Origin: Candidatus Magasanikiibacteriota bacterium
GTDB lineage: Bacteria > Patescibacteriota > Patescibacteriia > Magasanikbacterales > UBA922
Length of the DNA: 64,000 nucleotides
Reading direction: 5' to 3'
NCBI GenBank assembly: GCA_052033375.1
Contig: JBPOJQ010000013.1
Span: forward strand, 2,255 to 66,254
This document shows positions 1-21,068 of this stretch, one piece after another (the first letter of the stretch is position 1; each line of letters opens with the position of its first letter). The position numbers and the translations under genes were made by a program. Below the pieces are notes generated by a model that had not been told where the DNA came from, searched no databases, and saw only the letters and a list, made by a program, of their open reading frames with translations.

Positions 1-3000
1 ACAACCTCTACTCGATGCGAAAATGGAATTTGCACCTGTCCTAAATCCATCCCCACCACGACATTGGTATGGCACGCCAAAATTATAATCAGGGAATCCA
101 AATATTGGCGTCAACAAACTCTGCGTATTAGCCCCTAAAATCTCTGCATTTACGACACTCTGTGGAAGTGAACCATATGGTGCGATTCCGGTGGTCTGCC
201 CTTTGATTACTGAAAGAAGGCCATTTGCAGCCGGCTGATACACACTATGAGCCCACACTCGATCGGTCCACGCTTTATTATTATCCTCCATCAGACTTAC
301 TCGATTATCTACGACAGCACTATATTCGAGACATCGATCTTGCATCTTTGCGATTGTTGCGATTCTAATACCAGTCGCCTCTCCGCCACTATTTTCTGTT
401 GCCATACACCATCGTGCAATATACCCGAGAAATTCACCTTCTGCATTGAAATCCATTCCGATTGCGAGCCAGTTATTTTTTCCCCTCTGTTCACAGCGAA
501 CCTGGAATGGATCACTGAATGCGTCAATTGTATTTACTTCAGCATTCTGAAGTGCAGAAAATTCAACACTGTCGCTTCCAAAAACCACAGAAACATATCT
601 TCGCGCTATTTTATTTCTATCACGCATGTCTTCTGATTCGGGACGATTGTATAATTCCCAAATAAATCCTTCCGGACTAATTCCCGAAGAATCATAATCA
701 CAATATGATAACAATCCATTCACACCGCAACTTTCGCTATCACCTGTACGATTCAATACATACGAAATATTCGTCATGTTTGTCTCAGAATTGGTAACAT
801 TGTACGTATGCTGATCATCCGCTCCTCCGTCAGAGTAGGCTGGTACTGTATTTCGATATACCCGCTGATTTGCTGGGGCATTTTTTAATACACTAAATTC
901 AATCTTGACCTCTGCAGTGAGTAGAGCAGGATTCACCCCCTCTGCCCCATCCGTAAATGCAATTGGTACAAAATGAACACTCTCCAAATCATCCTCACGG
1001 AGCCCAGCTTCGACAACTCCATCTGCATGGATAAATGTATTTGAATCTCTAAAACCAGGGAGTAACCCTATTTCAGGCGAGAATGCCATGGTCCCAATTT
1101 TTCCAATCTCCTCACTCCCTGCGTTCATATAATATTCACCGATATGTGAATACCCACTCGAATTTTGTGTTGCACTAAATTTCCGTGGTGGATGCATCAA
1201 TACGCCCGTATCCTCTTCCAACAAATTACCACCACTACCCACAATCTCGGTAACCAGAGGCGCAAATGAATACACTTCTTTCCCCACCCCACCAAGATCT
1301 TCTGAATAATCTACTCGATCACCGCCCTTGGTATCCAGACGAAGCACACGCGCAGAAGGTCCAATATTTTTCCAACTCCATGCCTGGATTGCACGATACA
1401 CTTTCATTTTTTCAGTCGGGCCAGTACCAGTATCACTCATTAAATTACGGTAGACGCTCGTACCCCGATCGACTCGATAATTAGTCTGATTATCTATATC
1501 AAATACCTCACGATACTCAACACCACTATACAATGGTCGTGTAGATATCTGATCGATTGATGTCAGATTCGACCCAATAAATGTTCCCAAATTAACCAAG
1601 CTATTAAGTGATGTGTCATAATACCCTGCACCACGATTCGTGCTCTCCGTGCAATACGCATGTCCTCCACCAAGTGGTGAATCGTATGCCTGTACAGGAT
1701 AATACCCTGCCTGAGGATCAAGATTATTCAAATCCACTGCCGAAGCCGACACTTGAATTGGAAGCCACGTAAGACATGCAAATGCTTCATGCAGTCGAGC
1801 AGTCGCTTTTGAGGTGCCAAGTGGACGACTAAAATCATATTCAATACAAAGTCCTTTCTGTCCCACATATGTCCCACGCTGTTTTATCGTACTACATACA
1901 CCACCCACTCCACACTCAGTAGTGCTCGCGCATGGATTTCCATCACTGTCCCCACCAGTACAAATTCCTGGTGCAACCAATTCAGCGTCTGATGTCGCCC
2001 AATAGTCTACCACTCCATTCTTATATTCAACTTTGACATATTCACATGAACAATCTTCAGATGCACTGCCTGGCTGGCATACATTCGCTCGTTCATACAA
2101 TTCTTTTTTCTCAGTGAAATCTACTCGTGAAAATTCACCATTTTCTTTTACATCACTTTCATTTAGATCGCGTACGGCAATTTCAATCGAGAACGGACTT
2201 GTCTGTTCTGGATACGACTTACAAATTCCTGGCTGCAGCTGCTTCAACATATTCTGAATATTTGACGCAACTGCCGCATCGCTCGTCCCTGCTGCTGGAG
2301 TGAATGTGAATGTACCCTCAATCGGATAAATGCACCGCTCACGGTAGCATCGTCCACCATTATCAAATCCACACACAGCGCCATCGCTTTTTACATACGT
2401 CACACCTTCGCTAGTGTTTGTAGTTTCACGACATCCACGTGCCTCGTCTTCAGTAAAGAAACTATGGCTCATTTCATACCCCATGTATGCTTCCTTTCTA
2501 CCATCAAACAAAAGATATACAAAATTACTTGGATTGTACATGTTGAAGAATGAATAACCAGAATATTCCGTCGCGTTCCACCCTATATCGCGGGAAATAT
2601 ATTTTTCTTCCGTCATTCGAGAATTATCGAGTGTTGCATTTATCCGTTCAATACATTCTCCGGTTGGCCCAAATTTGCGACATCCCACATATTGCTGACA
2701 CAATACCTGTTTGTTTCCATTTTCATCAGTAACTGTAATCGAACTACCACATGCCAGCCATTCACTACACTGTCTATCACGATCTACTTTGAGCAGAATA
2801 TTCGCATCTAAATTCCCTGTAATTACAGGAGTGACCAGGCTATCTTGCGGATTCGCGCTTCGGCTCGCCTGATATGATGCTGACGTATTGTATACCTTAT
2901 CCAAATCTTCGGTCATGTCGAACAATACACATCCTTCTTTTTGACTCACTTTCCCCTGACACTGTGCAACACCCTCTGTCAGTCGATCATTCATGAGTAC

Positions 3001-6000
3001 GTAGTACGATTTGCCATTAGGTGTCGCTGGTGTAATTGCTGAACGATCTACCAATTCAGTACATCCATTATATGCACTTTCACACACACCCACCGCACCT
3101 TGATATTGCTGACTTCCTTGCGAATGAATACCATACTCATTTCCTGCATTAAGATACGTCGGATCACACGGAATAATACCAATATCAATACATTGGCCAT
3201 TACTGCCACACTCAGAATTGGTCCGACATTCCTGATTGCCCACGCTACACCGCCCAGTATCTCTAAACCATCCACTGTACGTCTGTGCCGAAGACCCTGA
3301 GCCGAGCGTCACCTTATCTTTGTATACACACTGTCCATTTCCGCTGTACTTAGGATCCTTGAAATACACCAGTGAATTATCATTTTTAAATGCCGCGCAC
3401 CCCACCTCATTACCTGTACACAATGTATCACCATAGATACGAGGATCATTCTTGATAAATACGTCTTGATAGCTATACGCATTCGCATTATCGGTATTTA
3501 CATTTTTTGTCTCAAGACCGACACGTGTACAAGCAAGATTTTCTTCCTGACATAAAAATTGATTTTGTGCTGCAAGATAAATCAAATCAGAGTCTTCCTT
3601 CACAACAACACTTGATTCATCAATAAATAGTTTATCTGAATTATCAACCGCACATGATCCATTAATCGAGATACACCTGCCGGACGTACCCGCAAAACTA
3701 CCCGATGTAATAGAGGCGTGTGTTGCCGCAGGTGGAATCACCACTGGATTTTGCACTCGGCATTCTCTTTCCCCTTTTGCAACCATACATGTATACGTTG
3801 CCGACACTCCAAGAGATTCAGTTAGAGTGACTGAGCACGGCGTCTGATTGGTGACAGTAGTCGATTTTCGACAAACCACACCATAGGCCTGCTTTTCTTC
3901 AGGTCGCACTCCAGATACAGTATTTTGCGTATCTACCAACGCACGACACCCCACGGCCTCCTCACGACACAATCGATCAAAACCAGTCAATGCAAAAGTT
4001 TGTCCATCGTTTCTTGTATATTCACGACATCCCAGATGTTCTCCAGGCAACCCATTATTCGGTGTGGAATCGCATGCGAGCGAAACCTCATACCCCTCTC
4101 CTGTACGCCATGAATTTTTTATGAGGAACACATGATCACTCGCGGTGCCACCAATTTGCACAAATTCGATATTGTCGAGAAAGAATACTTGATTCGATCC
4201 TTGTGTATTAAAATACAATTGTGTCTGCTTGGTACTATCCCCCGTAAACTGTACAGGTCCCACTCGGTATTCTTGCCACTGTGTTCCAATAGACACAGGC
4301 ACGTTGCTATTTGACGCAGGGTCGAATGTAAATGCATTTCCAATCTGTGCACCATCCTGACTAAATCCAATTGATAATTCAAAGGATGCATTACCCCGTG
4401 CCCAAAAACGAATCTCATACCAGGCACCTGGCTGCAATTTCCCTGATTCAAACGTATAATTCGTGCTTTGAGCATTTACCCGAAGTGAATGTAACCCTAC
4501 TTGCAAGGACTCTGCCTCAATTGACGTGTTTCCAAACCACCCAAGCTTTGCTTGATTGATTGCCCCAGCTGAGGTATCTGATGGTTCGAATCCAAAATTA
4601 GCAACTTCATACAAATTATTTCCCGTATTTCCAATATAAGATCTACATCCATTCGCACTCACAGGACAACTCGTTGCCTCTGCTTTAATCGATTGGTACA
4701 CACACGAGCCAATTCCTTCGGCGTTTAATTCATATCTTCCTCCGGATGCACATCTCTTACATTGACTATTTCCCCATACCCCACCTTTTGCTTCACATAG
4801 AGATGCGCCACCATTTTCTGCAGTAATATTAGTATCTACCACCAATTCTGAATTTGTTTTTCGAAGTGGCGAGCATGAATTTGATACTGTCACCGTATTT
4901 CTAAATACTCGATAAAAAATTTCTCCATTAGCATTATACAAAGCTCGACAATCAGGATCAGCAGCACGAGGATCATTTTGAGTATTATTTAATAAAATAT
5001 TATAAGATTCTTGATTACACTGATCATAATTACTCTGCATGACTGTTTTTACATCTTCCACATAGATTGGAGAGCCTACTGGAAATACAGTCGCAACTGA
5101 ATCACTCGTCTTGTAATTGAGCCCGAGTCCTGCAATATATTCAGCATCTGATTGAGTGATTGGTAATAACGTGTTTCGTCTCAATTGATACCCCTGACTC
5201 TCTGAACCTTCCCATGAGTAAAATACTCCGCTGTTGTTGCCATTCGGACGTTCACAGCGCTTGAGTGATGTGTAATATTCGAGTGACTCACCTCCCGCAT
5301 TTGCAGCATCAATATTCGTAAATTCATCACATCCTACCTGAAGCGCAGAACATGTTCTCCCACTCCCAGCAATGAAATGTAGCGGGAATTTGGTAGATTC
5401 AAACGCAGTCGCTTCTTGCTTGAATGTCTCATACCCCACACACTGTGTCGGACAGCTGTTGCCCCCAATAATACCAGCAACTGATGCACCACCACTCTTG
5501 GGTCGATACTCATCGCATCCCACTTCCTCTGCAGTACATGCACTTGCAAATTGCGAACATGATGCTGATTTTTGTTCTTCCAGTTTTACTATCTCTGCTT
5601 GTGTTTTTGGCCATTCAATGGTCTGCGGTGTTGTCACATCAGTATCGTAACACTGTAGATATTCAGGCGCTTTTTTCAAAAATACTTTTGCATCATCGCT
5701 TGAACTATCATTAACGAGTGGATCCATAAACAGAGAACATCCCTCAGCAGACGCAGGACATTGTGCGCTCAATGTGAAATGGATCGCCTGTGTGCGACCA
5801 GCAAATGCTAATACAGGATCCGCACTTGCAGAAGGAGTCCAGGTATTTCCTACCTTTTCCATACTATACGACCGGCAACCAATTGAATCTGCACTACATG
5901 ACTGTGTATCAAGCGTACGGGACAAATATGATCCTACCTGCCCACTCTCTACTGACACATACGTCTTACATGTATTAAACTGTGGTTCACAGGACTCTCC

Positions 6001-7644
6001 AGGCATGCTCCACATATTCTCTTCTTTGGTACAGTATCCAAATCCCGTACACTGACCATTTTCGTCAGTTTGTAGACAGGTAGAAAAATCTACACACTCC
6101 TCACGTCTATTTGCAGCAGATTCAGTCAGAAGTTCTGGGCCAGACACACGTGCCTCACAACGCGCTTCAGGTGACTTGAGTATCCAATTCGGATCGATCA
6201 ATTTGCAATATGGATACGCTGGACTCGGTTTACCACTAGGGTCGCACGCATTAAATCCGTCGACGACATCGCCAAGTGTCCATGGATTATCTGGACTTGA
6301 TTTTCGAACCGCAATTTCAAATCCGAGCGGTAAAATACGCGCTTTTCTTAATTTTTCCACATTCGAGATACAGTACGCTGAGCTATGACAATACTGTAAA
6401 TTAGTATTATCGGCAGTGCGCGCTTCTGGAATCAACGGCCAGTTTGGGTGGAGTAAATTCTGTTCCAGCGCTTCGGCAATAGTCATTGGTGTTTCTACTC
6501 GTGCGCGTTCAAGTGCCTGGACCAGTCCTGAATCCATGACACAATTATTCAATCCTGGATTATTTCCACACGTGCTAAATTCCGTCACCACGTCATACGC
6601 GGTCAATGGTCGCTGAGGGACGCTTGCAATTAAATAAGAAAATGCCTGTTCTGCAATCTGACGATTACTATTTACATTCGATGCATAAAAATCACCCACA
6701 GATGAAGGATCGCCTTTGCTCGGGAACAAGCCTTTTTCAACCACATTCTGAAGTAACGAATTTACTAATGTATTTGCAAAAACCGAGAGTGCCATCGGCA
6801 GAATTTGGACTGCACCTGCTCCATAAATTCCTGCGATTTGTTCAGTATTTAATTTGGTTTGAGCTGAAGCAGTCAATTGATTTTTTGTTTCAGTACTGAT
6901 TATTTGCGCAGGTGTTTTGATATCATCTGAAATCAATCCTGACACTGCTTTGAATCCTTCTCCTTCAAGTCGCTGTAGCTGAGCTGATAATTGTTTTTCA
7001 GCCACTAGCGTGTCTACTTTTCCCAAAATACCAAGCGCAACTCCAATATCTCCCTGAGATGTTTTGAGTGAGGCATTGAAATTTTCGAGTAAATTTCGAT
7101 CACCAATGACACTTTCTCTTGCGTTATCCCAATTTTCTTTAAACTGATTATATGTACAGTTGGGCGTAGGTCCCTCGACTGTGCGATTTAATTCATTTTC
7201 AAAAATATTTGAAATACTCACCTGTAGCCCAATCTGCATTCGGATATCTGGGGGTTTACAGATGTTCAAACCAAACGGTTTTCCCAATTCATCAAGCGCA
7301 TCAAATGCACTGTCTGCTGCAACAGTTCCCAAATATTCTCCGAAACCTTCCTGGAACGCTAGTGCCCCCTGTCCTTTTCCACCTGATGCGACATATTTTG
7401 CCGTATCATAGGCAACCTTACGCATAAAATAAGACACACCGTTGACCAGAGCACCCAATCCAGCCGCAAGCAGTGAATCTCCGATATTATCAGTGACATT
7501 TCTGATACCCTGATTGACATCAACCATACCCGCTCGTACAGGGGTCGGACGGAATATATTAAAGCCAAAGATACTCACTGACACCACAATTGCAAGTACT
7601 GTCAATGTGGAGTATTTACGTGTCTTTTGTGATAGGAAAAACAT
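1..7644 (-). CDS. Giant Cys-rich secreted/surface protein, N-terminal 2548 aa in window, C-terminus continues beyond position 1. It has an N-terminal signal/TM anchor, many Cys-rich modules and an internal jelly-roll/CBM-like domain.
   Basis: I translated the frame by hand from ATG (7644..7642) to position 1 and saw no in-frame stop. The N-terminus MFFLSQKTRKYSTLTVLAIVVSVSIF has a hydrophobic anchor. Cys content is high, with many CxC/CxxC spacings. The segment YEVANFGFEPSD...WYEIRFWARG...FLDNIEFVQIGG resembles CBM/laminin-G-like beta-sandwich domains. All listed ORFs in 1..7600 lie in other frames, as expected for shadow ORFs. Confidence 0.85.
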   Translation of the reverse strand, partial: MFFLSQKTRKYSTLTVLAIVVSVSIFGFNIFRPTPVRAGMVDVNQGIRNVTDNIGDSLLAAGLGALVNGVSYFMRKVAYDTAKYVASGGKGQGALAFQEGFGEYLGTVAADSAFDALDELGKPFGLNICKPPDIRMQIGLQVSISNIFENELNRTVEGPTPNCTYNQFKENWDNARESVIGDRNLLENFNASLKTSQGDIGVALGILGKVDTLVAEKQLSAQLQRLEGEGFKAVSGLISDDIKTPAQIISTETKNQLTASAQTKLNTEQIAGIYGAGAVQILPMALSVFANTLVNSLLQNVVEKGLFPSKGDPSSVGDFYASNVNSNRQIAEQAFSYLIASVPQRPLTAYDVVTEFSTCGNNPGLNNCVMDSGLVQALERARVETPMTIAEALEQNLLHPNWPLIPEARTADNTNLQYCHSSAYCISNVEKLRKARILPLGFEIAVRKSSPDNPWTLGDVVDGFNACDPSGKPSPAYPYCKLIDPNWILKSPEARCEARVSGPELLTESAANRREECVDFSTCLQTDENGQCTGFGYCTKEENMWSMPGESCEPQFNTCKTYVSVESGQVGSYLSRTLDTQSCSADSIGCRSYSMEKVGNTWTPSASADPVLAFAGRTQAIHFTLSAQCPASAEGCSLFMDPLVNDSSSDDAKVFLKKAPEYLQCYDTDVTTPQTIEWPKTQAEIVKLEEQKSASCSQFASACTAEEVGCDEYRPKSGGASVAGIIGGNSCPTQCVGYETFKQEATAFESTKFPLHFIAGSGRTCSALQVGCDEFTNIDAANAGGESLEYYTSLKRCERPNGNNSGVFYSWEGSESQGYQLRRNTLLPITQSDAEYIAGLGLNYKTSDSVATVFPVGSPIYVEDVKTVMQSNYDQCNQESYNILLNNTQNDPRAADPDCRALYNANGEIFYRVFRNTVTVSNSCSPLRKTNSELVVDTNITAENGGASLCEAKGGVWGNSQCKRCASGGRYELNAEGIGSCVYQSIKAEATSCPVSANGCRSYIGNTGNNLYEVANFGFEPSDTSAGAINQAKLGWFGNTSIEAESLQVGLHSLRVNAQSTNYTFESGKLQPGAWYEIRFWARGNASFELSIGFSQDGAQIGNAFTFDPASNSNVPVSIGTQWQEYRVGPVQFTGDSTKQTQLYFNTQGSNQVFFLDNIEFVQIGGTASDHVFLIKNSWRTGEGYEVSLACDSTPNNGLPGEHLGCREYTRNDGQTFALTGFDRLCREEAVGCRALVDTQNTVSGVRPEEKQAYGVVCRKSTTVTNQTPCSVTLTESLGVSATYTCMVAKGERECRVQNPVVIPPAATHASITSGSFAGTSGRCISINGSCAVDNSDKLFIDESSVVVKEDSDLIYLAAQNQFLCQEENLACTRVGLETKNVNTDNANAYSYQDVFIKNDPRIYGDTLCTGNEVGCAAFKNDNSLVYFKDPKYSGNGQCVYKDKVTLGSGSSAQTYSGWFRDTGRCSVGNQECRTNSECGSNGQCIDIGIIPCDPTYLNAGNEYGIHSQGSQQYQGAVGVCESAYNGCTELVDRSAITPATPNGKSYYVLMNDRLTEGVAQCQGKVSQKEGCVLFDMTEDLDKVYNTSASYQASRSANPQDSLVTPVITGNLDANILLKVDRDRQCSEWLACGSSITVTDENGNKQVLCQQYVGCRKFGPTGECIERINATLDNSRMTEEKYISRDIGWNATEYSGYSFFNMYNPSNFVYLLFDGRKEAYMGYEMSHSFFTEDEARGCRETTNTSEGVTYVKSDGAVCGFDNGGRCYRERCIYPIEGTFTFTPAAGTSDAAVASNIQNMLKQLQPGICKSYPEQTSPFSIEIAVRDLNESDVKENGEFSRVDFTEKKELYERANVCQPGSASEDCSCEYVKVEYKNGVVDYWATSDAELVAPGICTGGDSDGNPCASTTECGVGGVCSTIKQRGTYVGQKGLCIEYDFSRPLGTSKATARLHEAFACLTWLPIQVSASAVDLNNLDPQAGYYPVQAYDSPLGGGHAYCTESTNRGAGYYDTSLNSLVNLGTFIGSNLTSIDQISTRPLYSGVEYREVFDIDNQTNYRVDRGTSVYRNLMSDTGTGPTEKMKVYRAIQAWSWKNIGPSARVLRLDTKGGDRVDYSEDLGGVGKEVYSFAPLVTEIVGSGGNLLEEDTGVLMHPPRKFSATQNSSGYSHIGEYYMNAGSEEIGKIGTMAFSPEIGLLPGFRDSNTFIHADGVVEAGLREDDLESVHFVPIAFTDGAEGVNPALLTAEVKIEFSVLKNAPANQRVYRNTVPAYSDGGADDQHTYNVTNSETNMTNISYVLNRTGDSESCGVNGLLSYCDYDSSGISPEGFIWELYNRPESEDMRDRNKIARRYVSVVFGSDSVEFSALQNAEVNTIDAFSDPFQVRCEQRGKNNWLAIGMDFNAEGEFLGYIARWCMATENSGGEATGIRIATIAKMQDRCLEYSAVVDNRVSLMEDNNKAWTDRVWAHSVYQPAANGLLSVIKGQTTGIAPYGSLPQSVVNAEILGANTQSLLTPIFGFPDYNFGVPYQCRGGDGFRTGANSIFASSRGC

Positions 7645-7646
7645 AG

Positions 7647-8309
7647 TTATTGATCAGTCGTAGTCGCTGATTTATTTTGTAGCGCACTATATTCAGTTAT
7701 CATTTCTTCTGCCAATTGTTTGAGTGTGGCATCATCAATTTTTTCCAATTCTTCTTTTGAAATTTTTCCTGTATTCAGAATCAGCTGTCGTAGCTGCGCC
7801 GGATCTCTCAAAATCATTGCGACTGCTTCTGGATCGATTGCACCGCCACTCACATTTCCGAGCTGGCTTTGAAGTAAAATTTCACTTGGTGAAACAGCAC
7901 TCTCAAGCAAGGGAGATTCGGGCGAATTTTCTTCGCCTGTTCCTGCGCCAAATTCGTTTTCACACATCTGCCCTTCTGGACAGAGCGGATTAGTACCTTC
8001 TGATATCTCAGTCGCGTCAGTACGTTTATCACTATCTGTGTCAGGAAGATACGGACTCGTATTGAAATCGTAAATTTCTTCATAATCAGACAACGTGTCT
8101 TTATCCGTATCAATACTCTGGAGTCTGACCGTCTCGCTATATTCTCCTAGCTGTAAATCAGGCGTCTGCTGTCTCACGGTGAATCTCCCATATACAGTAT
8201 TTCTCAGATGCAAAAAACTAAACGAAAAAGTCACTAAAGCAAATATAAGCAAAGAAATAAATCCTGCTTTTTGCGCGGAATCGAGTTGTCGAGGCTCCGA
8301 CGAATTCAT
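7647..8309 (-). CDS. Small membrane-anchored acidic protein with Asp-rich, thrombospondin-type-3-like Ca-binding repeats, co-transcribed immediately upstream of the giant gene
   Basis: 220 aa ORF. It has an N-terminal TM (FISLLIFALVTFSFSFL) and the repeats DTDKDTLSDYEE and DTDSDKRTD. Its TAA stop is 2 nt from the giant gene's ATG. A TTGTGA-17-TATACT promoter-like sequence lies upstream at about 8325..8360 (minus strand). Confidence 0.75.
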   Translation of the reverse strand: MNSSEPRQLDSAQKAGFISLLIFALVTFSFSFLHLRNTVYGRFTVRQQTPDLQLGEYSETVRLQSIDTDKDTLSDYEEIYDFNTSPYLPDTDSDKRTDATEISEGTNPLCPEGQMCENEFGAGTGEENSPESPLLESAVSPSEILLQSQLGNVSGGAIDPEAVAMILRDPAQLRQLILNTGKISKEELEKIDDATLKQLAEEMITEYSALQNKSATTTDQ

Positions 8310-8370
8310 GAAATCAGAGCTTAAATATCTTTGTACTCAAGTATAGCAAAAAAACACGCTCCTCACAAAA

Positions 8371-9195
8371 TTATCTTGTGAGTAAGTCTGAAAATTTTTC
8401 CCATTGTTCGATTGACAATTCTTCTGCTCTGCTATTTTTATCAAGATTCAAATGTTCGTATATACCTTCAACCGTCTCTTTTGAAAGACCGTAGGCTTCA
8501 ATGACATTGTTGATTAATTTCTTTCTCTTATGATGAAAGCCCGCTTTTACCAACCTAAAAAATGTATCGCTTCCAGGACGTGGTCGGATGTTTTTAATTG
8601 CAATAATCGCTGAGTCTACCTTTGGACTAGGCCAAAACGATCCTCGATGCACCTTCCCGACCATCTGCGGTTTTCCAAAATACTGAATCGATACCGCAAG
8701 AATACTCATCTCCCCCGGTCCTTTGACTATGCGCTCAGCGACTTCTTTTTGTACCATGCAAACGACTTCTGTCGGCGGATTTTTTGACTCAAGAATAATC
8801 TGAAGTGCTTCAGAGGTGATCTGATACGGAAGATTGGCCAATACTTTATATGGGAGACGTTCGGAATCAGTATACTCGCCCCATTGTCGTAATACATTTC
8901 CCCAGACAATTTCTAGCGTAGGATACGCCGCCTCATACGTTTCCCAATATGGTTTGAGTTTCTGTTCAATTTCAAATGCTCGAACTCTCGCACCTGCTTT
9001 CAATAATTCAAATGTCAAAATACCAAACCCAGGACCAATCTCATAGACGACTTCATCAGGCACCACTGCCGCAGCCGTAATCATTTTTTGTATTGGAATT
9101 TCTGAAATCAAATAATTCTGTCCGTATTTTTTACTCGGGGTAAGAGAATACTTTTCGCACAATTGTTTGATTTTGGTTGGAGTCAACAGGCTCAT
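8371..9195 (-). CDS. rsmA: 16S rRNA (adenine1518/1519-N6)-dimethyltransferase
   Basis: 274 aa. The SAM-binding motif EIGPGFGILT and a KsgA-family C-terminal region are present, with length typical for KsgA. Confidence 0.9.
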   Translation of the reverse strand: MSLLTPTKIKQLCEKYSLTPSKKYGQNYLISEIPIQKMITAAAVVPDEVVYEIGPGFGILTFELLKAGARVRAFEIEQKLKPYWETYEAAYPTLEIVWGNVLRQWGEYTDSERLPYKVLANLPYQITSEALQIILESKNPPTEVVCMVQKEVAERIVKGPGEMSILAVSIQYFGKPQMVGKVHRGSFWPSPKVDSAIIAIKNIRPRPGSDTFFRLVKAGFHHKRKKLINNVIEAYGLSKETVEGIYEHLNLDKNSRAEELSIEQWEKFSDLLTR

Positions 9196-9358: not shown

Positions 9359-9982
9359 TCAATCGTTCAAAATTATCTCTCCTTGTCTCAAAATTATTTT
9401 TGATCCGTCTTCTCCGACTCGGACTACCGTAGACGGGCTATGATGGGCTAGATTCCCTGCGTCAATAATAAGATCAGGTACATGTTCCTGACCATCAAAC
9501 ATCTCGGTGATGTAGCGGATATCGTAGGGATTCGCATATGAACTGATGTTTGCTGAGGTGGAGACAAGCGGTGCGTTCAAATTTTTTGCACAGGCGACTG
9601 CGTAGGGATGATTGGTCACCCGAAATGCCAAGGTATCATCGCTTCCGATTACACCAGGGGCAAGCTCAGCACGATAACGTGGTTGTATGTTTGCAACAAT
9701 TGTCAAAGGTCCTGGCCAATAGGTGCGCGCCAATTCATCAATTGTTTCATTCCATTCTACATACCTCATAGCAACCGAGACATCATGTACCAATACCAAC
9801 ACAGGTTTACCTGACTCTCGGACCTTGATTTTGAACACATTCTCAACCGCCTTTGCACTTCTTGCATCGCACCCAAGCCCATAACAAGTCTCTGTCGGAT
9901 AGATAATAGTGCCCTCCTCTCTGAGGACGGTGAGGGCTTTTTCTATCGAAAGCGGGTCATGTATTGATACAATACGCAACAT
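9359..9982 (-). CDS. tsaC: L-threonylcarbamoyladenylate synthase (YrdC/TsaC family)
   Basis: 207 aa. YrdC-domain motifs are present (YPTETCYGLGCDA, SANISS). It is a single-domain TsaC rather than Sua5. Confidence 0.85.
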   Translation of the reverse strand: MLRIVSIHDPLSIEKALTVLREEGTIIYPTETCYGLGCDARSAKAVENVFKIKVRESGKPVLVLVHDVSVAMRYVEWNETIDELARTYWPGPLTIVANIQPRYRAELAPGVIGSDDTLAFRVTNHPYAVACAKNLNAPLVSTSANISSYANPYDIRYITEMFDGQEHVPDLIIDAGNLAHHSPSTVVRVGEDGSKIILRQGEIILND

Positions 9983-12153: not shown

Positions 12154-12429
12154 TTACTCTCCCGCATACTCAAATCTTTTCATTGTCTTTCCATCAACTT
12201 CCACATCACTTTCAAACATACTCTTTGGTCGTGCCCAGAGCTGATCGACTCCATTCTCATCAGGGTGAGAATACACGACCAATTCCTCGTCGGGATTTTC
12301 ACTATGTTTTGCGACACCGATCACTGTGCACATATGACCTTTGTAGTGCCGATATTTTCCAAGTTTAATCATACATGCATTTTTTTCCCTGCCTGCTGAC
12401 AGGTAGTGTGCGTTTTCATCGTTACTCAA
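12154..12429 (-). CDS. DUF1653 family protein
   Basis: The YRHYKG motif and a VVYSHPDENG...WARPKSMF region match the DUF1653 consensus. A minus-strand hairpin plus T-run overlaps the stop at about 12131..12160. Confidence 0.7.
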   Translation of the reverse strand: MSNDENAHYLSAGREKNACMIKLGKYRHYKGHMCTVIGVAKHSENPDEELVVYSHPDENGVDQLWARPKSMFESDVEVDGKTMKRFEYAGE

Positions 12430-14471
12430 CGAAGTTGAATCCCATCCCCCACTTTCTTTAGGGTTACCTGCGTGACCTGATCATCTGCGCTCATACGTAC
12501 TTTTGAGGTAAGATCTTTTTGCGTCGGATTATCTACGTTCAACACTACAGGAAATGTTGCTGAAAGAATATCGACGCTGGTGGGCATTTCAGGTATGGTC
12601 CAGGTGATTCGTTTACTCGTCTCATCATATGTCATTTCCCCTGCAGCAACCGTAAATTTGGATGGATCGACCACTACTTCACCATACACATCCATCTCCA
12701 ATTTGATATTTTTCAAACCATGAAAAGAATTTGATAACGCCCATGAAATATCATAGGTTCCAGCAGCACCACCAGTGCTGCCAAATTCATATTCTGTTTT
12801 GAGTGCAAAATCAGATACCAGCGTGAGATTAATCTGATTTGAAGAAATTGTCTTTCGATCATCTTTTTTTCCATGCGTAAAGCTCGACGTAAAGATAATA
12901 TTATTGGTAGTAAAATTACCCAAGGTAATCTGATCTCCTGACCGAATAGGAATTGATACATCCACCTGAACTTGTTCTCCCGGAGCAATTGATGCGAGCT
13001 CGGGCACATACGCCTTATTCCAACTGATTTTTCCTCGTCGAGTATCTGGTGTCAATTGTTCTCCATCTACCGCAGCATCACCTGTGATCACGAGATCCTG
13101 CCAACCGAGAATACTTCGATTACTGTATGACGGACCATCAATCACCGCGTCAATCACCACATCAGTCAGCACAGTTTCTCCTTTATTCTGGACAACAATA
13201 CTTGCTGATACTGTTTCACCCGGGGCAATTGTTGTATCACCCGCACCCCCATTGATGACTAAACTAATATTTGTCGTAGACTCAGTCAAAGACACTGATT
13301 GTGTGGCACGTCCGACGATATATCCGTCTCCTGTGCGCTGATCAGTCTCCCACCCCCGTAATTCGACCATAACATCACTGGTCGACGAAGGACTAGAAAA
13401 GGCGCCGGACAATTCGACTACTGTCTTTTCGGTTATATTATCAAAATCCCAGGTACATGGCATTCCTTCTTCAGAAGCAGGCGTACTCTTGATATCTGGT
13501 TGAAAATCCAGAGAAGTGCAGATGAGCCGTACGTGTGCAAGTACCACGCCAGATGCCGGAGTAATCGTGATTGTGATTGGAGTTTTTCCACCCCGAGGAA
13601 CTTCATTTGCGACACCAATCTCAATCACTGCTGCATCTGTATTCGCATGTATTTTTTTGACAGCTACAGCATGAAATGTGGAAGTAAAATTATCTGGTTT
13701 ATAGGAGAGTATTCCACGAATTGACTGCTCTGATCCGCTATCCCCGTACAAGATCCCTGTCACATCAATAAATCCACCGCTTCCAGGATCGAGGGTTCCC
13801 AATGTCCAACGATCATTTGATTCATCATCCCCTGCTTTAGTCGTTGTAGTTATCTTGAATCCTTCGGGAAAGCGCACCTCGAGTACTGACTCGTGCAGTG
13901 ACACACTCTGTGCATTCCGATAGCGTATCCGATATGTCACCTGACTTCCTGGAAGAACACTTTCCTCGCCTGTAATACCCAATGACACATCAGCTTCTGA
14001 AAAATGTGATTTCGGTTGTAGTAGAAATAATCCTGCCCAGGCTGCTCCGCCAAAAAAGATACATGAGATCAAAAAAATCACTAGCGCACGCACAAACGTA
14101 CTTGTTTTCCTACTTTCAAATGTCTTCATGTCTGGCATCGATCCATCACTATTTTCATAAATCTGAGATAATTGTTCGGCTATCACCTGCCCCCTCACAC
14201 TGTCTGTCGGAGCAGCATACGTCTCTTCCACATCAGCAATCTCTTCAGAGTCATCCTCGATATCTTTTTTTTCAGAGTCATGCGTCTGCTTTTTCTTTTT
14301 TTCATGCCCTATCTTTTTCTTTTCTTTTTTTTCTTTTTTTTCCCCTGTTTCCAAATCTTTTTCCACAAATGCACCGTGCTCATGTTCATCATGTGCCGGT
14401 GTTTCACCATTCCATTCCCGTTCCAACTCTTCTATATGTTCAGTGTCGTGTGATTTTTTTTCATGTGTCAT
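12426..14471 (-). CDS. Membrane-anchored surface protein. It has a K/E-rich low-complexity cytoplasmic N-terminus, one TM, then beta-rich repeated (DUF11/Ig-like) extracellular modules.
   Basis: 681 aa. The N-terminus HEKKSHDTEHIEELERE...KKEKKEKKK is encoded over poly-T/A tracts at 14276..14345. TM segment LVIFLISCIFFGGAAWAGLFLL. Repeats such as GSQVTYRIRYRNAQSVSL are DUF11-like. There is a 4-nt ATGA overlap with the downstream gene. Confidence 0.8.
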   Translation of the reverse strand: MTHEKKSHDTEHIEELEREWNGETPAHDEHEHGAFVEKDLETGEKKEKKEKKKIGHEKKKKQTHDSEKKDIEDDSEEIADVEETYAAPTDSVRGQVIAEQLSQIYENSDGSMPDMKTFESRKTSTFVRALVIFLISCIFFGGAAWAGLFLLQPKSHFSEADVSLGITGEESVLPGSQVTYRIRYRNAQSVSLHESVLEVRFPEGFKITTTTKAGDDESNDRWTLGTLDPGSGGFIDVTGILYGDSGSEQSIRGILSYKPDNFTSTFHAVAVKKIHANTDAAVIEIGVANEVPRGGKTPITITITPASGVVLAHVRLICTSLDFQPDIKSTPASEEGMPCTWDFDNITEKTVVELSGAFSSPSSTSDVMVELRGWETDQRTGDGYIVGRATQSVSLTESTTNISLVINGGAGDTTIAPGETVSASIVVQNKGETVLTDVVIDAVIDGPSYSNRSILGWQDLVITGDAAVDGEQLTPDTRRGKISWNKAYVPELASIAPGEQVQVDVSIPIRSGDQITLGNFTTNNIIFTSSFTHGKKDDRKTISSNQINLTLVSDFALKTEYEFGSTGGAAGTYDISWALSNSFHGLKNIKLEMDVYGEVVVDPSKFTVAAGEMTYDETSKRITWTIPEMPTSVDILSATFPVVLNVDNPTQKDLTSKVRMSADDQVTQVTLKKVGDGIQLR

Positions 14472-14481
14472 AGAAAAAAGA

Positions 14482-17151
14482 TTATTCTTGTTTCATTACA
14501 ATTCCAAACACTGCGTCCTCTGTCAGAATACCCTCGGTTGACGCTCCATTGAGGGAGAGTGAGATATCATCACTCGTTCTCCAAACCGGACGCCAGTGAT
14601 CAGGATAAATAACTGTATGTACAAACGCACTCGTCATACCAGACTGTTTTTGCATGACCATACTATATTTCGATGTATGCTCTACCGCCTGTGATAGTTT
14701 GGTAAGATATTCTTTAACCTTGTTCCCTTCTGTTTCTGCATGTTTATTTTCTTCATCGGAAAATGCACGAAAAGGTAGTCGATACGTGAAATATACTTTT
14801 GTCTCCGTATTAGGATACGTGACAATCCAATTTCCAAATGAAGTCTTACCAAATTCATTCACCATTCGAGTTCCTGATCCTTGATGAATACCTTTTTCGA
14901 TTTCATGTGTAGCAAGATCAGCGTCTTCGCGGTACCATTCAGGTGCCACGTGGAATGATGATTCATCAGGAAATACAAATCCACCAGCGTCGAGTAATTC
15001 TGCCCCCTCTGGCACATATACACGAATGTAGCTCGTATTTGGCTGACCAAAAAGTGTTGATTCATCACGCCCCTCATGTCTTCGTGTAATAATGACAGTG
15101 TCGATAATTGAACCATCAGCTTCAACTACGGCTTGATGTTCTACTGTCTGTGCAATATTCACATCACTCTTACCTCCGCCGATATTTGCATTGACGACCA
15201 TGAGATAATCCTGTGTGCGATCAGTCTGAATGATTTCTCCACTCCACCCATATGAACGAGCAAAATCCTGTACACGCGTATCAGTAAAATATGCCTGAAT
15301 TTCACGCTCACCCAGTGCGTCTGAGAGCTCGGTTACCAACGCAATCAATTGCTCCGGCTGAATCGTCTTCAGAATATCGGTAATCTGTCCAAACAGTACT
15401 GAGAGCACTGCCTTTGGTGTATTCAATCCATCCGCATTGTCATACGACTGAATTTCATAACTGAGATCTTTGATAGCTGACTCGCTCGTCAACATCACGT
15501 CATACTGTTCATTCTGCAATGGACCGATAATTTTTAATAGACGCTTGAGTACATCCGCATTAATTGCAATTACCCCATCGACAGTCGTATTTCTACTTTT
15601 TTGATAAAACCATGCAAGTTTTTCTCCTGTTGCTCTGAAATCAGGAAACCAATTCGCATCCTGAAATTCCCATCTATTATTAATTGACTGAAGTGGGACG
15701 GGAGGCTTCACAAATTCACTCAATTGCCCTTGCAAATCATAACTTCCGCCACCAGGAATATCGATGTTCAATATATTTCCATTCTGCACGTCGATTACCC
15801 CAAAACTTCCGATAAATCCTCCTGTCGGACGCAATTCATAGGGATTCTGGAATACGACTAGATACCGTTTGAATCCTTCTGAACCAAGCATGAGTTCAAT
15901 ACCAGAAATCACATCGGACACTTTTTGTACGTCTCCGACCAGTGTGTGAAATAACTCACGAAATTCACTAAATGATTCCTGATATTCAACGGGGAGCGAG
16001 GCAGGCGACACATGATCGAGACGTTCCAGTGCCTCGGTATATTGAGGCAGAGCTCCACGTATATGTACCCGGAGTGTTTTTAGGCGCTCAATATTTGAGA
16101 CATCAGTTGCCATGCGCACCTCATTGATACCCTTGATCAAATACGCATTCCCCAATGCGAGATAATGTCCTGCTTCCAATAATTCCTGTCTACTTTTGAT
16201 TTTTGTACCAACGACTGGTAATAGATCGAGTACATAGACCAATGCTTTATACTCTTTATCAACCATCGTCCGAGCGTTGCCAAAAGAGTTGAGCGCACTC
16301 GTCAAATCTAATTCTGCTTGTGGCAAATTCTGATTAAACGCAGCAACCGTCGAGGATTGGAGCGATAAAAATGCATTCGTACTCTCTGCAATGATTTCTT
16401 TGGTATTTTTTTCTACATCACGATAATACCCCAGTGCTTGGAATGGTGCTGCAGCAATGGTCACCAATATCAGGAGTGACAAAGCAAACTTTCGTATCTG
16501 AAATGAATGGTGTATTTTTTCTCGCGTACGCGCAATCGCGTCTTTCAGAGATACCCAGAACGAATGCCTCGTACGTGTCATGAGTACAGGGGTCAGTGGT
16601 ACTTCCACGTGATTATCGAGGGGTGACATGTTTTGTACAGTATTTTTCGGAGTGATTACATATGCCACGTCACGCACACCCTCGAGTCGTGCAATTTCTT
16701 TCAAAATATCAATGGCTGGTTTTTTGAGCGTATCTCTCGTCACCTGTGTTGCCGGTGCTGCATTTTTCTGATTTGCCAGACGCACCAACTGAGCAAAATC
16801 CACCGCCACCGGACGAGAATTTTTTTTTCTTGTGTCGGGACGATATACCTGAAGACTCTTCCATGCAGTGTCCAATTCTTCATTTTTGAGTGAAACCATG
16901 TGTGGAGATACCGGTGGTTCTCCTGGGGTGACATGTACCGTAATTGTTGGGGTTGTTTTTTTTGTTTTTGGACTGGTTACTATTGGTGTTTCTGGTTGTT
17001 TGTGAACCACGTTTATACCCAAAACAGGAGTTGATTTGTTCACTCCATTTTCGACACACGTACGCGCATTATGTCCCACTTTGTCGCATCGTGCACAGCG
17101 ACGCAGTGGTGCGCGTTTTTTGTTTGAGGATGTTTGAGAATAGTGCGGCAT
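14482..17151 (-). CDS. Large single-pass membrane protein with an N-terminal CCHC zinc knuckle and a large extracytoplasmic domain (possibly DUF4012-like), first gene of the polysaccharide cluster
   Basis: 889 aa. CARCDKVGHNARTC fits CX2CX4HX4C exactly. TM segment FALSLLILVTIAAAPF. C-terminal domain motifs RPTGGFIGSFG and NWFPDF are present. The DUF4012 assignment comes from memory and is uncertain. Confidence 0.8.
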   Translation of the reverse strand: MPHYSQTSSNKKRAPLRRCARCDKVGHNARTCVENGVNKSTPVLGINVVHKQPETPIVTSPKTKKTTPTITVHVTPGEPPVSPHMVSLKNEELDTAWKSLQVYRPDTRKKNSRPVAVDFAQLVRLANQKNAAPATQVTRDTLKKPAIDILKEIARLEGVRDVAYVITPKNTVQNMSPLDNHVEVPLTPVLMTRTRHSFWVSLKDAIARTREKIHHSFQIRKFALSLLILVTIAAAPFQALGYYRDVEKNTKEIIAESTNAFLSLQSSTVAAFNQNLPQAELDLTSALNSFGNARTMVDKEYKALVYVLDLLPVVGTKIKSRQELLEAGHYLALGNAYLIKGINEVRMATDVSNIERLKTLRVHIRGALPQYTEALERLDHVSPASLPVEYQESFSEFRELFHTLVGDVQKVSDVISGIELMLGSEGFKRYLVVFQNPYELRPTGGFIGSFGVIDVQNGNILNIDIPGGGSYDLQGQLSEFVKPPVPLQSINNRWEFQDANWFPDFRATGEKLAWFYQKSRNTTVDGVIAINADVLKRLLKIIGPLQNEQYDVMLTSESAIKDLSYEIQSYDNADGLNTPKAVLSVLFGQITDILKTIQPEQLIALVTELSDALGEREIQAYFTDTRVQDFARSYGWSGEIIQTDRTQDYLMVVNANIGGGKSDVNIAQTVEHQAVVEADGSIIDTVIITRRHEGRDESTLFGQPNTSYIRVYVPEGAELLDAGGFVFPDESSFHVAPEWYREDADLATHEIEKGIHQGSGTRMVNEFGKTSFGNWIVTYPNTETKVYFTYRLPFRAFSDEENKHAETEGNKVKEYLTKLSQAVEHTSKYSMVMQKQSGMTSAFVHTVIYPDHWRPVWRTSDDISLSLNGASTEGILTEDAVFGIVMKQE

Positions 17152-17245
17152 GGGTACACATCAAGCATATGTGTAGTATAGCATAGTTGCTCTCCCTATA
17201 TCTATGCTCACACATTCTTTTTGAATACCTGTTGTGTACAAGTAC

Positions 17246-18391
17246 TTACGGGACCATGTCCAGCGCCTTTTTATACACGTCACCTGTTTTTTGTATAAAC
17301 ACTGCTTCAGAGAAAAGCGCAGCCTGTTCACGCCCCTGTATCGAAAGTTCGCGACGCATTTCAGGGTCTCCCAATACTTGCGTCAATCCATATGCGATAT
17401 GATCCACACTCGTAGGATCAATATAGTACCCTGCGCCTCCTACTACTTCAGGTAGTGACCCCGCATGTGACACGATGACCGGTACCCCCCTACTCATTGC
17501 CTCTAATGCAGGGAGTCCAAATCCTTCGTGCAGACTTGGAAACACCACTGCCTCCGCACCGAGATATAATTCCGATAATTGAGCGTCTTCTACAAATCCG
17601 AGCATTCGCACACGACCAATTCCTTTGCGTATACATGATGCTTCCAATTGTTGATACCACTTATTTTTTCTTCCTACCAATATGAGCTCATGATTCGGAA
17701 AATTATGATATATCATCTTCCATGCGTCGAGCAGACGTTCCAAATTTTTATGCGGATATGCTGCGCCTACGTAGAGAAGATACGGATGATCGGGCAGTAA
17801 TTCGAGTCTGGACGCGTCCACGGTCGTTGATATCTTTGCATGCTGATACGGGGCCTGATACATCACTGATATACGTTCCTCAGGAGTACCACATGTACGC
17901 ATAATATCTTGCTTGGTATACTCACTCATTGCCATGATACTATCTGCATGTTTCAATGCGTGACGCACGACGAGACGGTGCACCATATCTTTGATCCAGA
18001 ACACCGGACGACTCCGCGTCGTCGCTTCATACCGAGAAAAATGAAACATGGTAAGATCGTGTATGGTCACGACATATTTTTTTCGATACAACAGTGGCAT
18101 ATTCCAATGTGGAAAATGCATCAACTCGTGAGATCCATTGTGTATGAGTGATAAAAATCTGGTCTGTTCATCCCATCCGTACCAATGCATCGGAGCCTCA
18201 ATGACATCAAAATTTCCGCCCGCCATGCGATAATTCCGTACTTCTTCTGGCTTGAGATATAGTGTATACGAAAAATCAGACTGATATTTCTGCAATCCGT
18301 GTACGAGTGATTCTACATACCGCGCAAGCCCAAATCCCTTTCCATACATCCGCGCGTCAATTGCAATTTTTTTTCCTGACATACTAGACAC
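17246..18391 (-). CDS. Glycosyltransferase family 4 (GT-B fold)
   Basis: The C-terminal GT1/GT4 signature is FPSLHEGFGLPALEAMSRGVPVIVS. Confidence 0.88.
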   Translation of the reverse strand: MSSMSGKKIAIDARMYGKGFGLARYVESLVHGLQKYQSDFSYTLYLKPEEVRNYRMAGGNFDVIEAPMHWYGWDEQTRFLSLIHNGSHELMHFPHWNMPLLYRKKYVVTIHDLTMFHFSRYEATTRSRPVFWIKDMVHRLVVRHALKHADSIMAMSEYTKQDIMRTCGTPEERISVMYQAPYQHAKISTTVDASRLELLPDHPYLLYVGAAYPHKNLERLLDAWKMIYHNFPNHELILVGRKNKWYQQLEASCIRKGIGRVRMLGFVEDAQLSELYLGAEAVVFPSLHEGFGLPALEAMSRGVPVIVSHAGSLPEVVGGAGYYIDPTSVDHIAYGLTQVLGDPEMRRELSIQGREQAALFSEAVFIQKTGDVYKKALDMVP

Positions 18392-18392
18392 A

Positions 18393-19520: not shown

Positions 19521-19523
19521 ATC

Positions 19524-20651: not shown

Positions 20652-20681
20652 GTCACAAAGTCGAAAGTCAATACAAGTGAA

Positions 20682-21023
20682 CTAACGTAACGTTTTAATG
20701 AAACCGGAAAGGAGTTTTGAAATTTCGACTGACTGTTCATAGAGTTTACGGGTTTGTTCCTTGGAAGTAAAGCCCAGCTCACAGGATACATATAGCATCG
20801 ATCGAACTTCCCTGCACGAACCTTTAGTAATGTAGAGAAAATGAGAAAATTCTCTATCTCCTCGCCGTTCAAACCCTTCTGCAATATTATTCATGATCGA
20901 AAGCAATGCTCTTTGTATTTGGTCTCTAAACCCAAAATCCCGACATGATTTAAATACGGCATATACACCAAGAGTTAAGGATCGTGCCTTTTGCCACGTA
21001 ATAATATCCTCAAATTTTTCAAT
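20682..21023 (-). CDS. Four-helix-bundle protein (TIGR02436), probably with a non-canonical start codon
   Basis: My translation of the frame upstream of the TTG at 20906 continues to a stop at 21069 and reads ...IEKFEDIITWQKARSLTLGVYAVFKSCRDFGFRDQIQRALLSIMNNIAEGFERR..., a canonical four-helix-bundle family sequence. No ATG/GTG/TTG lies upstream in frame. An ATT sits 6 nt after an AAGGGGGG SD-like run. Confidence 0.6.
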   Translation of the reverse strand: MEKFEDIITWQKARSLTLGVYAVFKSCRDFGFRDQIQRALLSIMNNIAEGFERRGDREFSHFLYITKGSCREVRSMLYVSCELGFTSKEQTRKLYEQSVEISKLLSGFIKTLR

Positions 21024-21068
21024 ATATATATCCCCCCTTATGACTTTATGGACTTGTAACTTTTTGAC

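Follow-up and report, generated by a model that had tools for sequence, protein, structure and literature searches.

A lineage-wide gene pair of Magasanikbacteria encoding a giant cysteine-rich protein, very probably exported, and a small transmembrane protein with TSP3-type repeats

Large cysteine-rich extracellular proteins have been proposed to serve in attachment in Peribacteria, which belong to the candidate phyla radiation (CPR) (Anantharaman et al. 2016, PMC4736985). That set comprises 20 genes, including a cluster of 14, and its products average ~1650 amino acids (aa) and ~7% cysteine and vary between strains (PMC4736985). Here we describe a gene pair found in a 64,000-nucleotide (nt) stretch of DNA, hereafter the window, from a Candidatus Magasanikiibacteriota bacterium (GenBank assembly GCA_052033375.1, contig JBPOJQ010000013.1, positions 2,255 to 66,254), a taxon that NCBI places within the Parcubacteria group of Patescibacteria. 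One gene encodes a very large cysteine-rich protein (the giant), and the gene directly 5′ of it encodes a protein with one predicted transmembrane (TM) helix (the small protein or small partner). The Peribacteria proteins are the closest described kind, and the giant falls in the same broad class: both are of CPR origin, very large, rich in cysteine, equipped with signal peptides and devoid of functional annotation. Compared by description only, the giant differs from the Peribacteria set in being the product of one single-copy gene of ~3000 codons, with 3.6% cysteine, which is universal in its lineage and is partnered by a protein with thrombospondin type 3 (TSP3) repeats. The pair is real, intact, widely conserved, uncharacterised and specific to the Magasanikbacteria lineage of Patescibacteria/CPR. 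Little is understood of the means by which CPR bacteria fasten onto other cells and exploit them, and the locus is a lineage-wide candidate for such a function.

Giant surface proteins are also known from other bacteria. The proteins Giant1–5 of Apilactobacillus kunkeei (PMC12863079), like Ebh and Embp of staphylococci, serve in adhesion or in interactions between cells. The giant described here would share with them Sec export, a length of several thousand residues and a location at the surface of a monoderm cell that has a wall. Ebh, Embp and Giant1–5 are long tandem arrays of repeat domains and are poor in cysteine, whereas the giant is non-repetitive, has ~55 putative disulfides and is accompanied by a dedicated small partner. 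The RTX/BIg adhesins of diderms, such as LapA, SiiE and MpIBP, resemble the pair in giant size, in Ca2+-binding Asp-rich motifs and in having distal domains for ligand binding, carbohydrate-binding modules (CBMs) among them. They are exported by type I secretion through a C-terminal signal, and they carry RTX nonapeptides along with tens of BIg repeats. None of these features was detected in the giant by Pfam and NCBIfam searches, long repeats were absent, and the predicted export signal is of the Sec type and lies at the N-terminus.

The gene pair and its conservation

Reverse-complement translation showed that positions 1..7644 of the minus strand form a single stop-free frame of 2548 codons, in agreement with a preliminary description of this DNA, which had reported an uninterrupted minus-strand reading frame. 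The frame starts with an ATG at 7644-7642, the closest in-frame stop codon 5′ of this ATG is a TGA at 7654-7656, and the frame is still open at window position 1. Because about one in 20 codons is a stop at ~43% GC, a run of this length cannot be attributed to chance; the longest open reading frame (ORF) in any other frame of the interval is at most 129 aa. The earlier remark that no ORF had been annotated in this frame is uninformative, since the ORF lister omits frames that run off the window. A complete public protein of 3026 aa (P0001) was 100% identical to the window part of the giant. The window therefore carries the 5′ 84% of the gene, corresponding to aa 1–2548 (1..7644, minus strand), and the expectation of a product longer than 2548 aa, cut by the window edge, was correct. 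The giant is thus a single intact gene and not a row of pseudogene fragments. Its description as cysteine-rich was likewise accurate: the part in the window contains 88 Cys residues (3.5%) and full-length P0001 contains 110 (3.6%), nearly all of them invariant across the family, with the first at aa 129.

The small partner gene, recognised by translation, synteny and family alignment, occupies 7647..8309 of the minus strand and encodes 220 aa. Its TAA (7649-7647) is separated from the giant ATG by a 2-nt spacer, CT (7645..7646, minus strand), as had been noted before, and in most relatives the gap is 2–20 nt. No Shine-Dalgarno-like sequence was visible 5′ of the giant ATG, and the spacing suggests that translation of the two genes may be coupled. 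Upstream on the same strand lie ksgA/rsmA, which encodes a 16S rRNA dimethyltransferase (8371..9195; TIGR00755, E 4e-61; syntenic in most loci), and tsaC, which encodes an L-threonylcarbamoyladenylate synthase (9359..9982; TIGR00057, E 2e-41; also syntenic). A consensus scan of the 61-nt spacer between ksgA and the small gene yielded a candidate promoter-like sequence, TTGTGA-17 nt-TATACT, in which a TG precedes the −10 element (extended −10; 8340..8368, minus strand). The site counts in the promoter and terminator scan did not exceed those in shuffled controls. Promoter-like sites being no commoner here than in shuffled sequence, this one is no more than a candidate. The proposal of a two-gene operon remains plausible in view of the 2-nt gap and the promoter-like site after ksgA, but the pair lies within a larger conserved block, tsaC-ksgA-small-giant.

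Contigs carrying relatives of the giant at 54%, 42% and 37% identity begin this block with tsaC, continue through variable genes to ksgA, and then have a small gene (220–235 aa) and the giant; the same order and pairing was seen in a divergent subfamily member of 2567 aa. In a tblastn comparison of 82 loci, an orthologue of the small gene stood directly 5′ of the giant wherever upstream DNA was present, and ksgA was the next gene in most. When ORFs were called in 66 distinct loci, 64 proved to have the orthologue. We consider it probable that the small protein is functionally linked to the giant.

Relatives of the giant retrieved by a word-indexed search numbered at least 258 and were nearly all 2.8–3.3 thousand aa (kaa) long, and a scan of one genome per species located relatives in 283 genomes. 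When a profile of aa 39–500 was used in an exhaustive search, 1361 representatives at 50% identity were obtained, 998 of them at E≤1e-30, and the best 150 of the 1361 were all giants of 2.5–3.3 kaa or fragments. Every named match was from Patescibacteria, the closest being from Candidatus Magasanikbacteria or from metagenome-assembled genomes (MAGs) labelled 'Patescibacteria group'. Among the fetched loci each assembly appeared once, save for genes split over two contigs, and no paralogue of the giant was found in the 64-kb window; we read the family as one passed on vertically. Many MAG records that contain the gene block are titled 'uncultured Gammaproteobacteria bacterium' (L005, L007, L008, L010, L012 and others), and one (L081) is titled 'Candidatus Udaeobacter sp.'; these titles are taken to be placeholders or wrong because the gene content (ksgA-small-giant and the type IV secretion genes described below) is specific to Patescibacteria. 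The giant family is large enough, with at least ~1000 clusters at 50% identity, for structures to be predicted from deep alignments and for co-evolution within the pair to be analysed now.

Public copies of the giant are labelled 'hypothetical protein' and, once, 'carbohydrate binding domain-containing protein', which fits the earlier statement that proteins of this kind usually go unannotated. The reduced-genome organism assumed in that statement is indeed a CPR bacterium (Magasanikbacteria), and the window is rich in housekeeping genes. Searches of the giant against Pfam and NCBIfam gave only weak jelly-roll matches and noise (INTS1_R4, Dumpy), with 0 NCBIfam families at E≤1, and no PDB entry was matched at E≤1 by a sequence profile built from 35 full-length members. 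A Myxococcus-type cysteine-rich repeat protein was considered and rejected on the same NCBIfam result. The preliminary description had named clear homology to a characterised adhesin family as a finding that would undercut its claim; none emerged when Pfam, NCBIfam and, by sequence as well as by fold, the PDB were searched. In the literature, we found no description of the giant family among work on cysteine-rich proteins of Magasanikbacteria or on giant genes of Patescibacteria.

Export, disulfides and predicted folds of the giant

Conservation and hydrophobicity predict a Sec-type signal peptide at aa 1–38 of the giant (7531..7644, minus strand), with a predicted signal peptidase I site between VRA and G. 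A basic n-region, a hydrophobic h-region and a c-region of the A-x-A type are present in every family member listed. At the predicted cleavage site, an alignment of 49 sequences has Ala at position −1 in 49/49 and V, A or T at position −3 in 49/49. TM segments were sought by a sliding sum of the Hessa hydrophobicity scale, a rough test that included no positional terms. The sole TM-grade window of the giant coincided with the signal region (family median −0.6; window copy 0.5), and the mature protein had no TM-grade segment, with a median minimum of +5.7 and 0/49 members below +1. Two candidate TM helices, aa 56–74 and 270–297, were rejected, their summed values being ~+5 with 0/49 members below 1. 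A lipoprotein signal was ruled out, there being no Cys before aa 129 and no lipobox.

The invariance of Ala at −1 and of V/A/T at −3 fits a processing site, and the most likely identity of the N-terminus is accordingly that of a Sec signal peptide that is cleaved off. It had previously been called an N-terminal anchor, but its features match those of a cleavable signal peptide, with the −3/−1 site in all 49 sequences and no TM segment in the mature protein. The anchor would make the giant a type II membrane protein that is held by an uncleaved signal anchor, with the small protein acting as an assembly factor, chaperone or regulator. Besides having been the first reading of this sequence, such self-anchoring would suit the long h-region (~18–19 residues), which is of borderline TM grade on the values given above. 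We nevertheless consider it unlikely, given that the −1 Ala and the −3 V/A/T occur at a fixed short distance past the h-region in 49/49 members.

The distribution of cysteines also bears on export. Across the 49 sequences, 94 of the 110 Cys residues of P0001 are at least 90% conserved, against a mean of 36% for other residues. The 12 poorly conserved ones make up six sequence-adjacent pairs (1324/1331, 2306/2315, 2771/2788, 2805/2815, 2832/2846 and 2852/2863), and the Cys count is even in 41/49 members. This pattern is that of a protein held by disulfides, ~55 of which are predicted, and for that reason the giant is placed outside the cytoplasm. That the giant is exported and rich in disulfides appears highly probable from these features, and ~1% of a ~1-Mb genome would then be devoted to one exported protein.

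The N-terminal two-thirds of the giant was divided into five regions, all encoded on the minus strand. An N-terminal domain (aa 39–350; 6595..7530) ranks with the better conserved stretches of the giant; AlphaFold2 (AF2) predicted long helices in it, at a predicted local distance difference test (pLDDT) score of ~30. It contains the two conserved, moderately hydrophobic helices mentioned above (56–74 and 270–297, neither of TM grade) and an invariant cysteine pair, C129/C163. It is followed by a small, strongly conserved and mostly helical domain (aa 372–490; 6175..6531; pLDDT 57–84) with many invariant residues and the motif CYSNIQKLRKARILPLGFEIAALKSDPD, for which no family or fold match was found. 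The first cysteine-rich region (aa 491–1000; 4645..6174), delimited by Cys spacing, contains recurring C-x6-C loops of the form C-x5-G-C-x2-[YF]. A β jelly roll of the CBM4/9/16/22 type comes next (aa ~1010–1168; 4141..4617), and then a second cysteine-rich region (aa 1180–2000; 1645..4107), again recognised by Cys spacing, with C-x6-C loops and C-x5-C-x5-C clusters; aa 1830–2000 of this region were modelled as β-rich at pLDDT 60–84. The AF2 tile covering aa 1–1185 was built from a 12-sequence alignment and had a mean pLDDT of 44, being usable only at aa 372–490, at ~930–975 and in the jelly roll.

The chain had been described as containing dozens of cysteine-rich modules. Instead, ~11 short loops of the C-x5-G-C-x2-[YF] type, plus other Cys clusters, are spread over the two cysteine-rich regions of a non-repetitive chain. 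Profiles of the modules cross-matched over 10–15 residues only, at 2–10 bits. A tandem array of one cysteine module was rejected, since the module profiles share only the C-x6-C core, and comparison of these profiles revealed no long internal repeats.

The internal jelly-roll or CBM-like domain that had been noticed at first was recovered by Pfam, AF2 and Foldseek alike. In Pfam, it matched Endotoxin_C (E 2.7e-4; 21.8 bits against a cutoff of 21) and CBM_4_9 (E 6e-3). The latter family matched 4/15 family members, with a best E of 1.7e-5, the window copy being below the gathering score. The AF2 model of the domain (pLDDT 74–87) matched CBM22, CBM4-2, CBM16 and CBM61 in a Foldseek search of the PDB, along with domain III of Cry toxins and the domain through which iota toxin Ib binds its receptor, at E 5e-7 to 1e-4. 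The β jelly roll is thus common to the giant, to CBM4/9/16/22 and to Cry domain III (Foldseek E 5e-7; target TM-score 0.5–0.67), whereas identity is 11–17%, and the jelly roll of the giant is embedded in a non-enzymatic chain rather than appended to a glycoside hydrolase. Judged by its fold, the domain could bind a glycan.

The resemblance to Cry domain III and to the iota-toxin domain, together with a helical N-terminal domain that contains a conserved hydrophobic helix, might suggest a secreted toxin or glycan-degrading enzyme that is released to the medium or onto a host. We regard this as very improbable. Searches of Pfam, NCBIfam and the PDB revealed neither a catalytic nor a pore-forming family, the likeness to Cry toxins is confined to a generic jelly roll ~700 residues away from the helical domain, and universal single-copy inheritance is atypical for toxins. 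A three-domain Cry toxin in particular was rejected: only Endotoxin_C scored, with neither Endotoxin_N nor Endotoxin_M in 15 members.

The C-terminal third begins within the window (aa 2001–2548; 1..1644, minus strand) and was delimited by length variation in the alignment and by AF2. This part is poor in cysteine and rich in insertions and deletions, and it contains a conserved β-sheet core (NWxAIGMDFNxxGEFLGYISRWC ... NKAWTNRVW) that was modelled at pLDDT up to 91. In the full-length protein, aa ~1950–2900 are hypervariable in sequence and in length, with 48–343 residues per 150 reference residues, and surround conserved cores. An AF2 tile of aa 1830–3026, built from a 29-sequence alignment, had a mean pLDDT of 68.8 and a predicted TM-score (pTM) of 0.62, and Foldseek found no PDB fold match for it (best E 0.25). 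Sequence motifs reminiscent of PKD domains were present in the C-terminal part (VDWGDG ... YFEFxHxY ... VQVLDNWG; a PKD domain is an Ig-like sandwich of ~80–90 aa with a motif of the WDFGDG type), and the model probably includes one PKD-like sandwich. Beyond that sandwich, the ~1100 C-terminal residues modelled at fair confidence appear to match no PDB fold, which makes the giant a potential source of new disulfide-rich folds. The architecture as predicted from sequence, namely a non-repetitive chain with ~55 putative disulfides, large regions without a known fold and a dedicated, putatively Ca2+-binding membrane partner, would be unusual.

The extreme C-terminus of the giant, beyond the window (aa 3015–3026 of P0001), is conserved as WTxYxGxIIVxP followed by 0–10 residues. 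No TM segment follows this motif, and it bears no likeness to a known sorting signal. Diversification by a diversity-generating retroelement was considered, an Avd-like gene being present 4 kb 3′ of the giant in one relative, and was rejected: no reverse transcriptase was listed there, and the extreme C-terminus is conserved.

The small partner and retention at the cell surface

From its N-terminus onward, the small protein has a TM helix, two TSP3-type repeats, a C110/C116 pair and, beyond a linker, a helical C-terminal segment that is conserved. It matches its earlier description as a 220-aa TM protein with TSP3-like DxDxD repeats. The hydrophobicity scan placed the TM helix at aa ~15–35 (8205..8267, minus strand), with a summed value of −1.3 in the window copy, a family median of −2.3 and a value below 0 in every member. 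Pfam and the family alignment placed two bacterial TSP3 repeats and a C-x5-C loop at aa 65–116 (7962..8117, minus strand; DTDKDTLSDYEE...DTDSDKRTDATE...CPEGQMC). The Pfam family TSP3_bac (PF18884) matched 47/50 orthologues, with a best E of 4.1e-10; the window copy alone was sub-threshold (E 0.27). Residues D67, T68, D69, D71, D75, E78, C110 and C116 are invariant in the family. A PDB profile search gave weak matches only, to EF-hand loops and to the Ca2+-binding region of the biofilm protein Bap. At the family level, the small protein is a TSP3_bac repeat protein and is predicted to bind Ca2+. It shares with other TSP3_bac proteins repeats of the DxDxDGxxDxxE type, and differs from them in having just two of these in a single-pass protein of 220 aa with a conserved C-terminal segment of its own. 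The K+R bias is slight (2.8 before the TM helix and 1.9 after it). Because TSP3 repeats and a cysteine pair are of extracytoplasmic type, an orientation with the N-terminus inside and the C-terminus outside is favoured.

From these features we propose the following mechanism. The small protein would insert through its single N-terminal TM helix, N-in/C-out, and would display the two Ca2+-binding TSP3 repeats, the disulfide loop and the C-terminal helical segment outside the membrane. The giant would be exported by Sec and its signal peptide removed between A38 and G39, whereupon its ~110 Cys residues would form ~55 extracytoplasmic disulfides, resulting in a rigid, protease-resistant ectoprotein of ~320 kDa. 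With the giant N-terminus read as cleaved rather than as an anchor, anchoring would fall to the small partner. Since the mature giant lacks a TM segment, a lipobox, an LPXTG motif and an S-layer homology (SLH) domain, it would be retained non-covalently, most likely tethered by its obligatory small partner and possibly in a Ca2+-dependent manner. The N-terminal two-thirds, including the CBM-like jelly roll, would form a conserved scaffold, and the hypervariable C-terminal third, including the PKD-like domain, would be a distal, fast-evolving surface for contact with a host cell or particle. As for covalent attachment to the wall, neither an LPXTG motif nor a TM segment was present at the C-terminus, full-length P0001 ending in ...GDGKIIILPVN; a sortase-anchored adhesin of the LPXTG kind (MSCRAMM, PrgB) was rejected for want of a C-terminal sorting signal or TM segment.

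The overall proposal, a Sec-exported and disulfide-stabilised surface protein that is held by a membrane partner and used for attachment, is one to which we give an even chance. We are similarly balanced on attachment to a partner cell or particle as its function, and slightly more reserved about the tether role of the small protein, for which co-occurrence and topology are the basis. Several points count against the proposal. The pair is known here from its sequence and from predicted models alone. The N-terminal 370 residues and both cysteine-rich regions were modelled at pLDDT ~30, so that the architecture given above is for the most part tentative. Episymbiosis of Magasanikbacteria has not been established by cultivation. 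Finally, the gene is universal, single-copy and located among housekeeping genes, which fits a structural role in the envelope at least as well as a role as an adhesin.

This last point leads to a rival explanation, in which the giant is not an adhesin but a structural envelope protein, such as an S-layer-like coat, a cell-wall scaffold or a spacer. Its universal, single-copy occurrence at a conserved position among housekeeping genes and the strong purifying selection on its N-terminal two-thirds are in keeping with such a role. So is the jelly roll, for which wall glycan made by the cell itself could be the ligand; genes for envelope glycan form a cluster at 17–22.5 kb of the window. Pfam and NCBIfam searches, however, detected no SLH or other known S-layer or wall-binding domain, and a length of ~3000 aa with a hypervariable C-terminal third is unlike the known lattice-forming S-layer proteins. 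We therefore consider a structural role possible but unlikely. An S-layer protein proper was also tried as a class assignment and rejected on the lack of SLH or related matches.

Type IV secretion genes in relatives and the rest of the window

Type IV secretion systems (T4SSs) of Patescibacteria belong to the monoderm conjugation type, a type dependent on adhesins at the cell surface, and a survey detected no PrgB-like adhesin of the MPF_FATA kind near their genes (PMC12102498). Cultivated Saccharibacteria cannot do without adhesin-like surface proteins, nor without their T4SS, whose role is unknown (PMC11665869). Downstream of the giant we found two arrangements. In the first, seen at 18 distinct loci, among them those of every close relative of the window, the giant is followed by the gene for aspartyl-tRNA synthetase (AspRS). 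In 19 loci, a T4SS cluster lies 3′ of the giant on the same strand, in the order VirB6/TrbL-like gene (950–1870 aa), two unassigned genes, PrgI (VirB3-like), a TraC-like gene and a VirB4-type ATPase. PrgI exceeded its Pfam threshold (33.7 bits against a cutoff of 27); the TrbL match was weak (E 0.006) and located near the N-terminus of the VirB6-like genes. Among 16 loci in which the spacing was resolved, the VirB6-like gene starts 9–3384 nt past the giant stop codon; three of these loci have gaps of 9, 48 and 77 nt, within a tightly packed array. In a rough midpoint-rooted neighbour-joining tree, the T4SS arrangement occupied the basal and most divergent branches, and the giant-AspRS arrangement of the window clade looks derived.

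These observations raise the possibility that the pair is an adhesin accessory of the T4SS, one that makes and stabilises cell-cell contact as PrgB of the enterococcal pCF10 system does; such a role would refine the attachment proposal rather than exclude it. It would suit the co-directional T4SS cluster 3′ of the giant in the 19 loci, the tight spacing in three of them, the coverage of basal and most divergent branches and the reported lack of PrgB-like adhesins near Patescibacteria T4SS genes. The giant, where so placed in relatives, shares with PrgB its position as a surface protein encoded 5′ of VirB6-like, PrgI and VirB4 genes, and both would provide cell-cell contact in systems without a pilus. 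PrgB differs in being anchored by LPXTG and ~1300 aa long, whereas the giant has no sortase signal, is rich in predicted disulfides and is not beside a T4SS in the window; no similarity in sequence or fold was found between the two.

No T4SS gene was found within the 64-kb window, and in its clade the downstream neighbour of the giant is AspRS. KsgA is common near virB4 in Patescibacteria, a proximity that has been ascribed to a conserved origin-proximal region (PMC12102498), and the adjacency of giant and T4SS may for the same reason reflect inertia of synteny. Moreover, ksgA and tsaC are equally conserved neighbours of the pair without a functional link to it. Because of this origin-proximal synteny, the equal conservation of ksgA and tsaC and the absence of a T4SS from the window, we hold the T4SS-adhesin explanation to be a minor possibility. 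In its fullest form, which we put forward as speculative, the pair would be the missing Ca2+-dependent, membrane-docked contact device of the Patescibacteria T4SS, functionally analogous to PrgB but unrelated to it in fold, the fold being largely new; the pair would once have belonged to a VirB6/VirB3/VirB4 array and later have been separated from it in the window clade. If this is true, the pair is what fixes ultrasmall cells to a partner during T4SS-mediated exchange of DNA or proteins.

Two further features of the T4SS loci were noted. The VirB6/TrbL-like genes are very large and have long extensions without a Pfam match (L048, 13614..19235; L036, 19688..24601; and other type-B loci). In a divergent relative (L083), a 650-aa cysteine-rich protein with matches to Cu-binding_MopE and, faintly, Stig1 is encoded at 14624..16576 on the minus strand, between the giant and the VirB6-like gene and on the opposite strand to them.

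The rest of the window consists of housekeeping genes typical of a reduced genome, including ksgA, tsaC, nusB, rnc, tRNA genes, the gene for RNase P RNA, aminoacyl-tRNA synthetase genes and genes of lower glycolysis. An envelope block at 12426..22559 (minus strand) encodes a 681-aa DUF11-repeat protein, an 889-aa DUF4012 protein, three glycosyltransferases of family GT4 and a polyprenyl-phosphate sugar transferase of the Bac_transf family. It is followed by an island of low GC content (~22000..28000; 34–37% against ~42% elsewhere) that begins at a tRNA-Leu gene (22652-22734) and could be an integrated element; its ORFs include one of 526 aa, whose sole match is a C-terminal SEC-C motif, and one of 534 aa without a Pfam match. 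The valyl-tRNA synthetase, a 1071-aa protein encoded at 46523..49738 on the minus strand (tRNA-synt_1, E 3e-116; Anticodon_1; Val_tRNA-synt_C), contains at aa 496–669 a complete inserted domain resembling histidine phosphatases of the phosphoglycerate mutase (PGAM) type (His_Phos_1, E 1.3e-35). Two tandem paralogues of cofactor-independent phosphoglycerate mutase, each with iPGM_N and Metalloenzyme domains, are encoded at 51153..52730 and 52738..54348 on the minus strand (E 3e-82 and 3e-68) and adjoin the genes for enolase, phosphoglycerate kinase (PGK) and glyceraldehyde-3-phosphate dehydrogenase (GAPDH).

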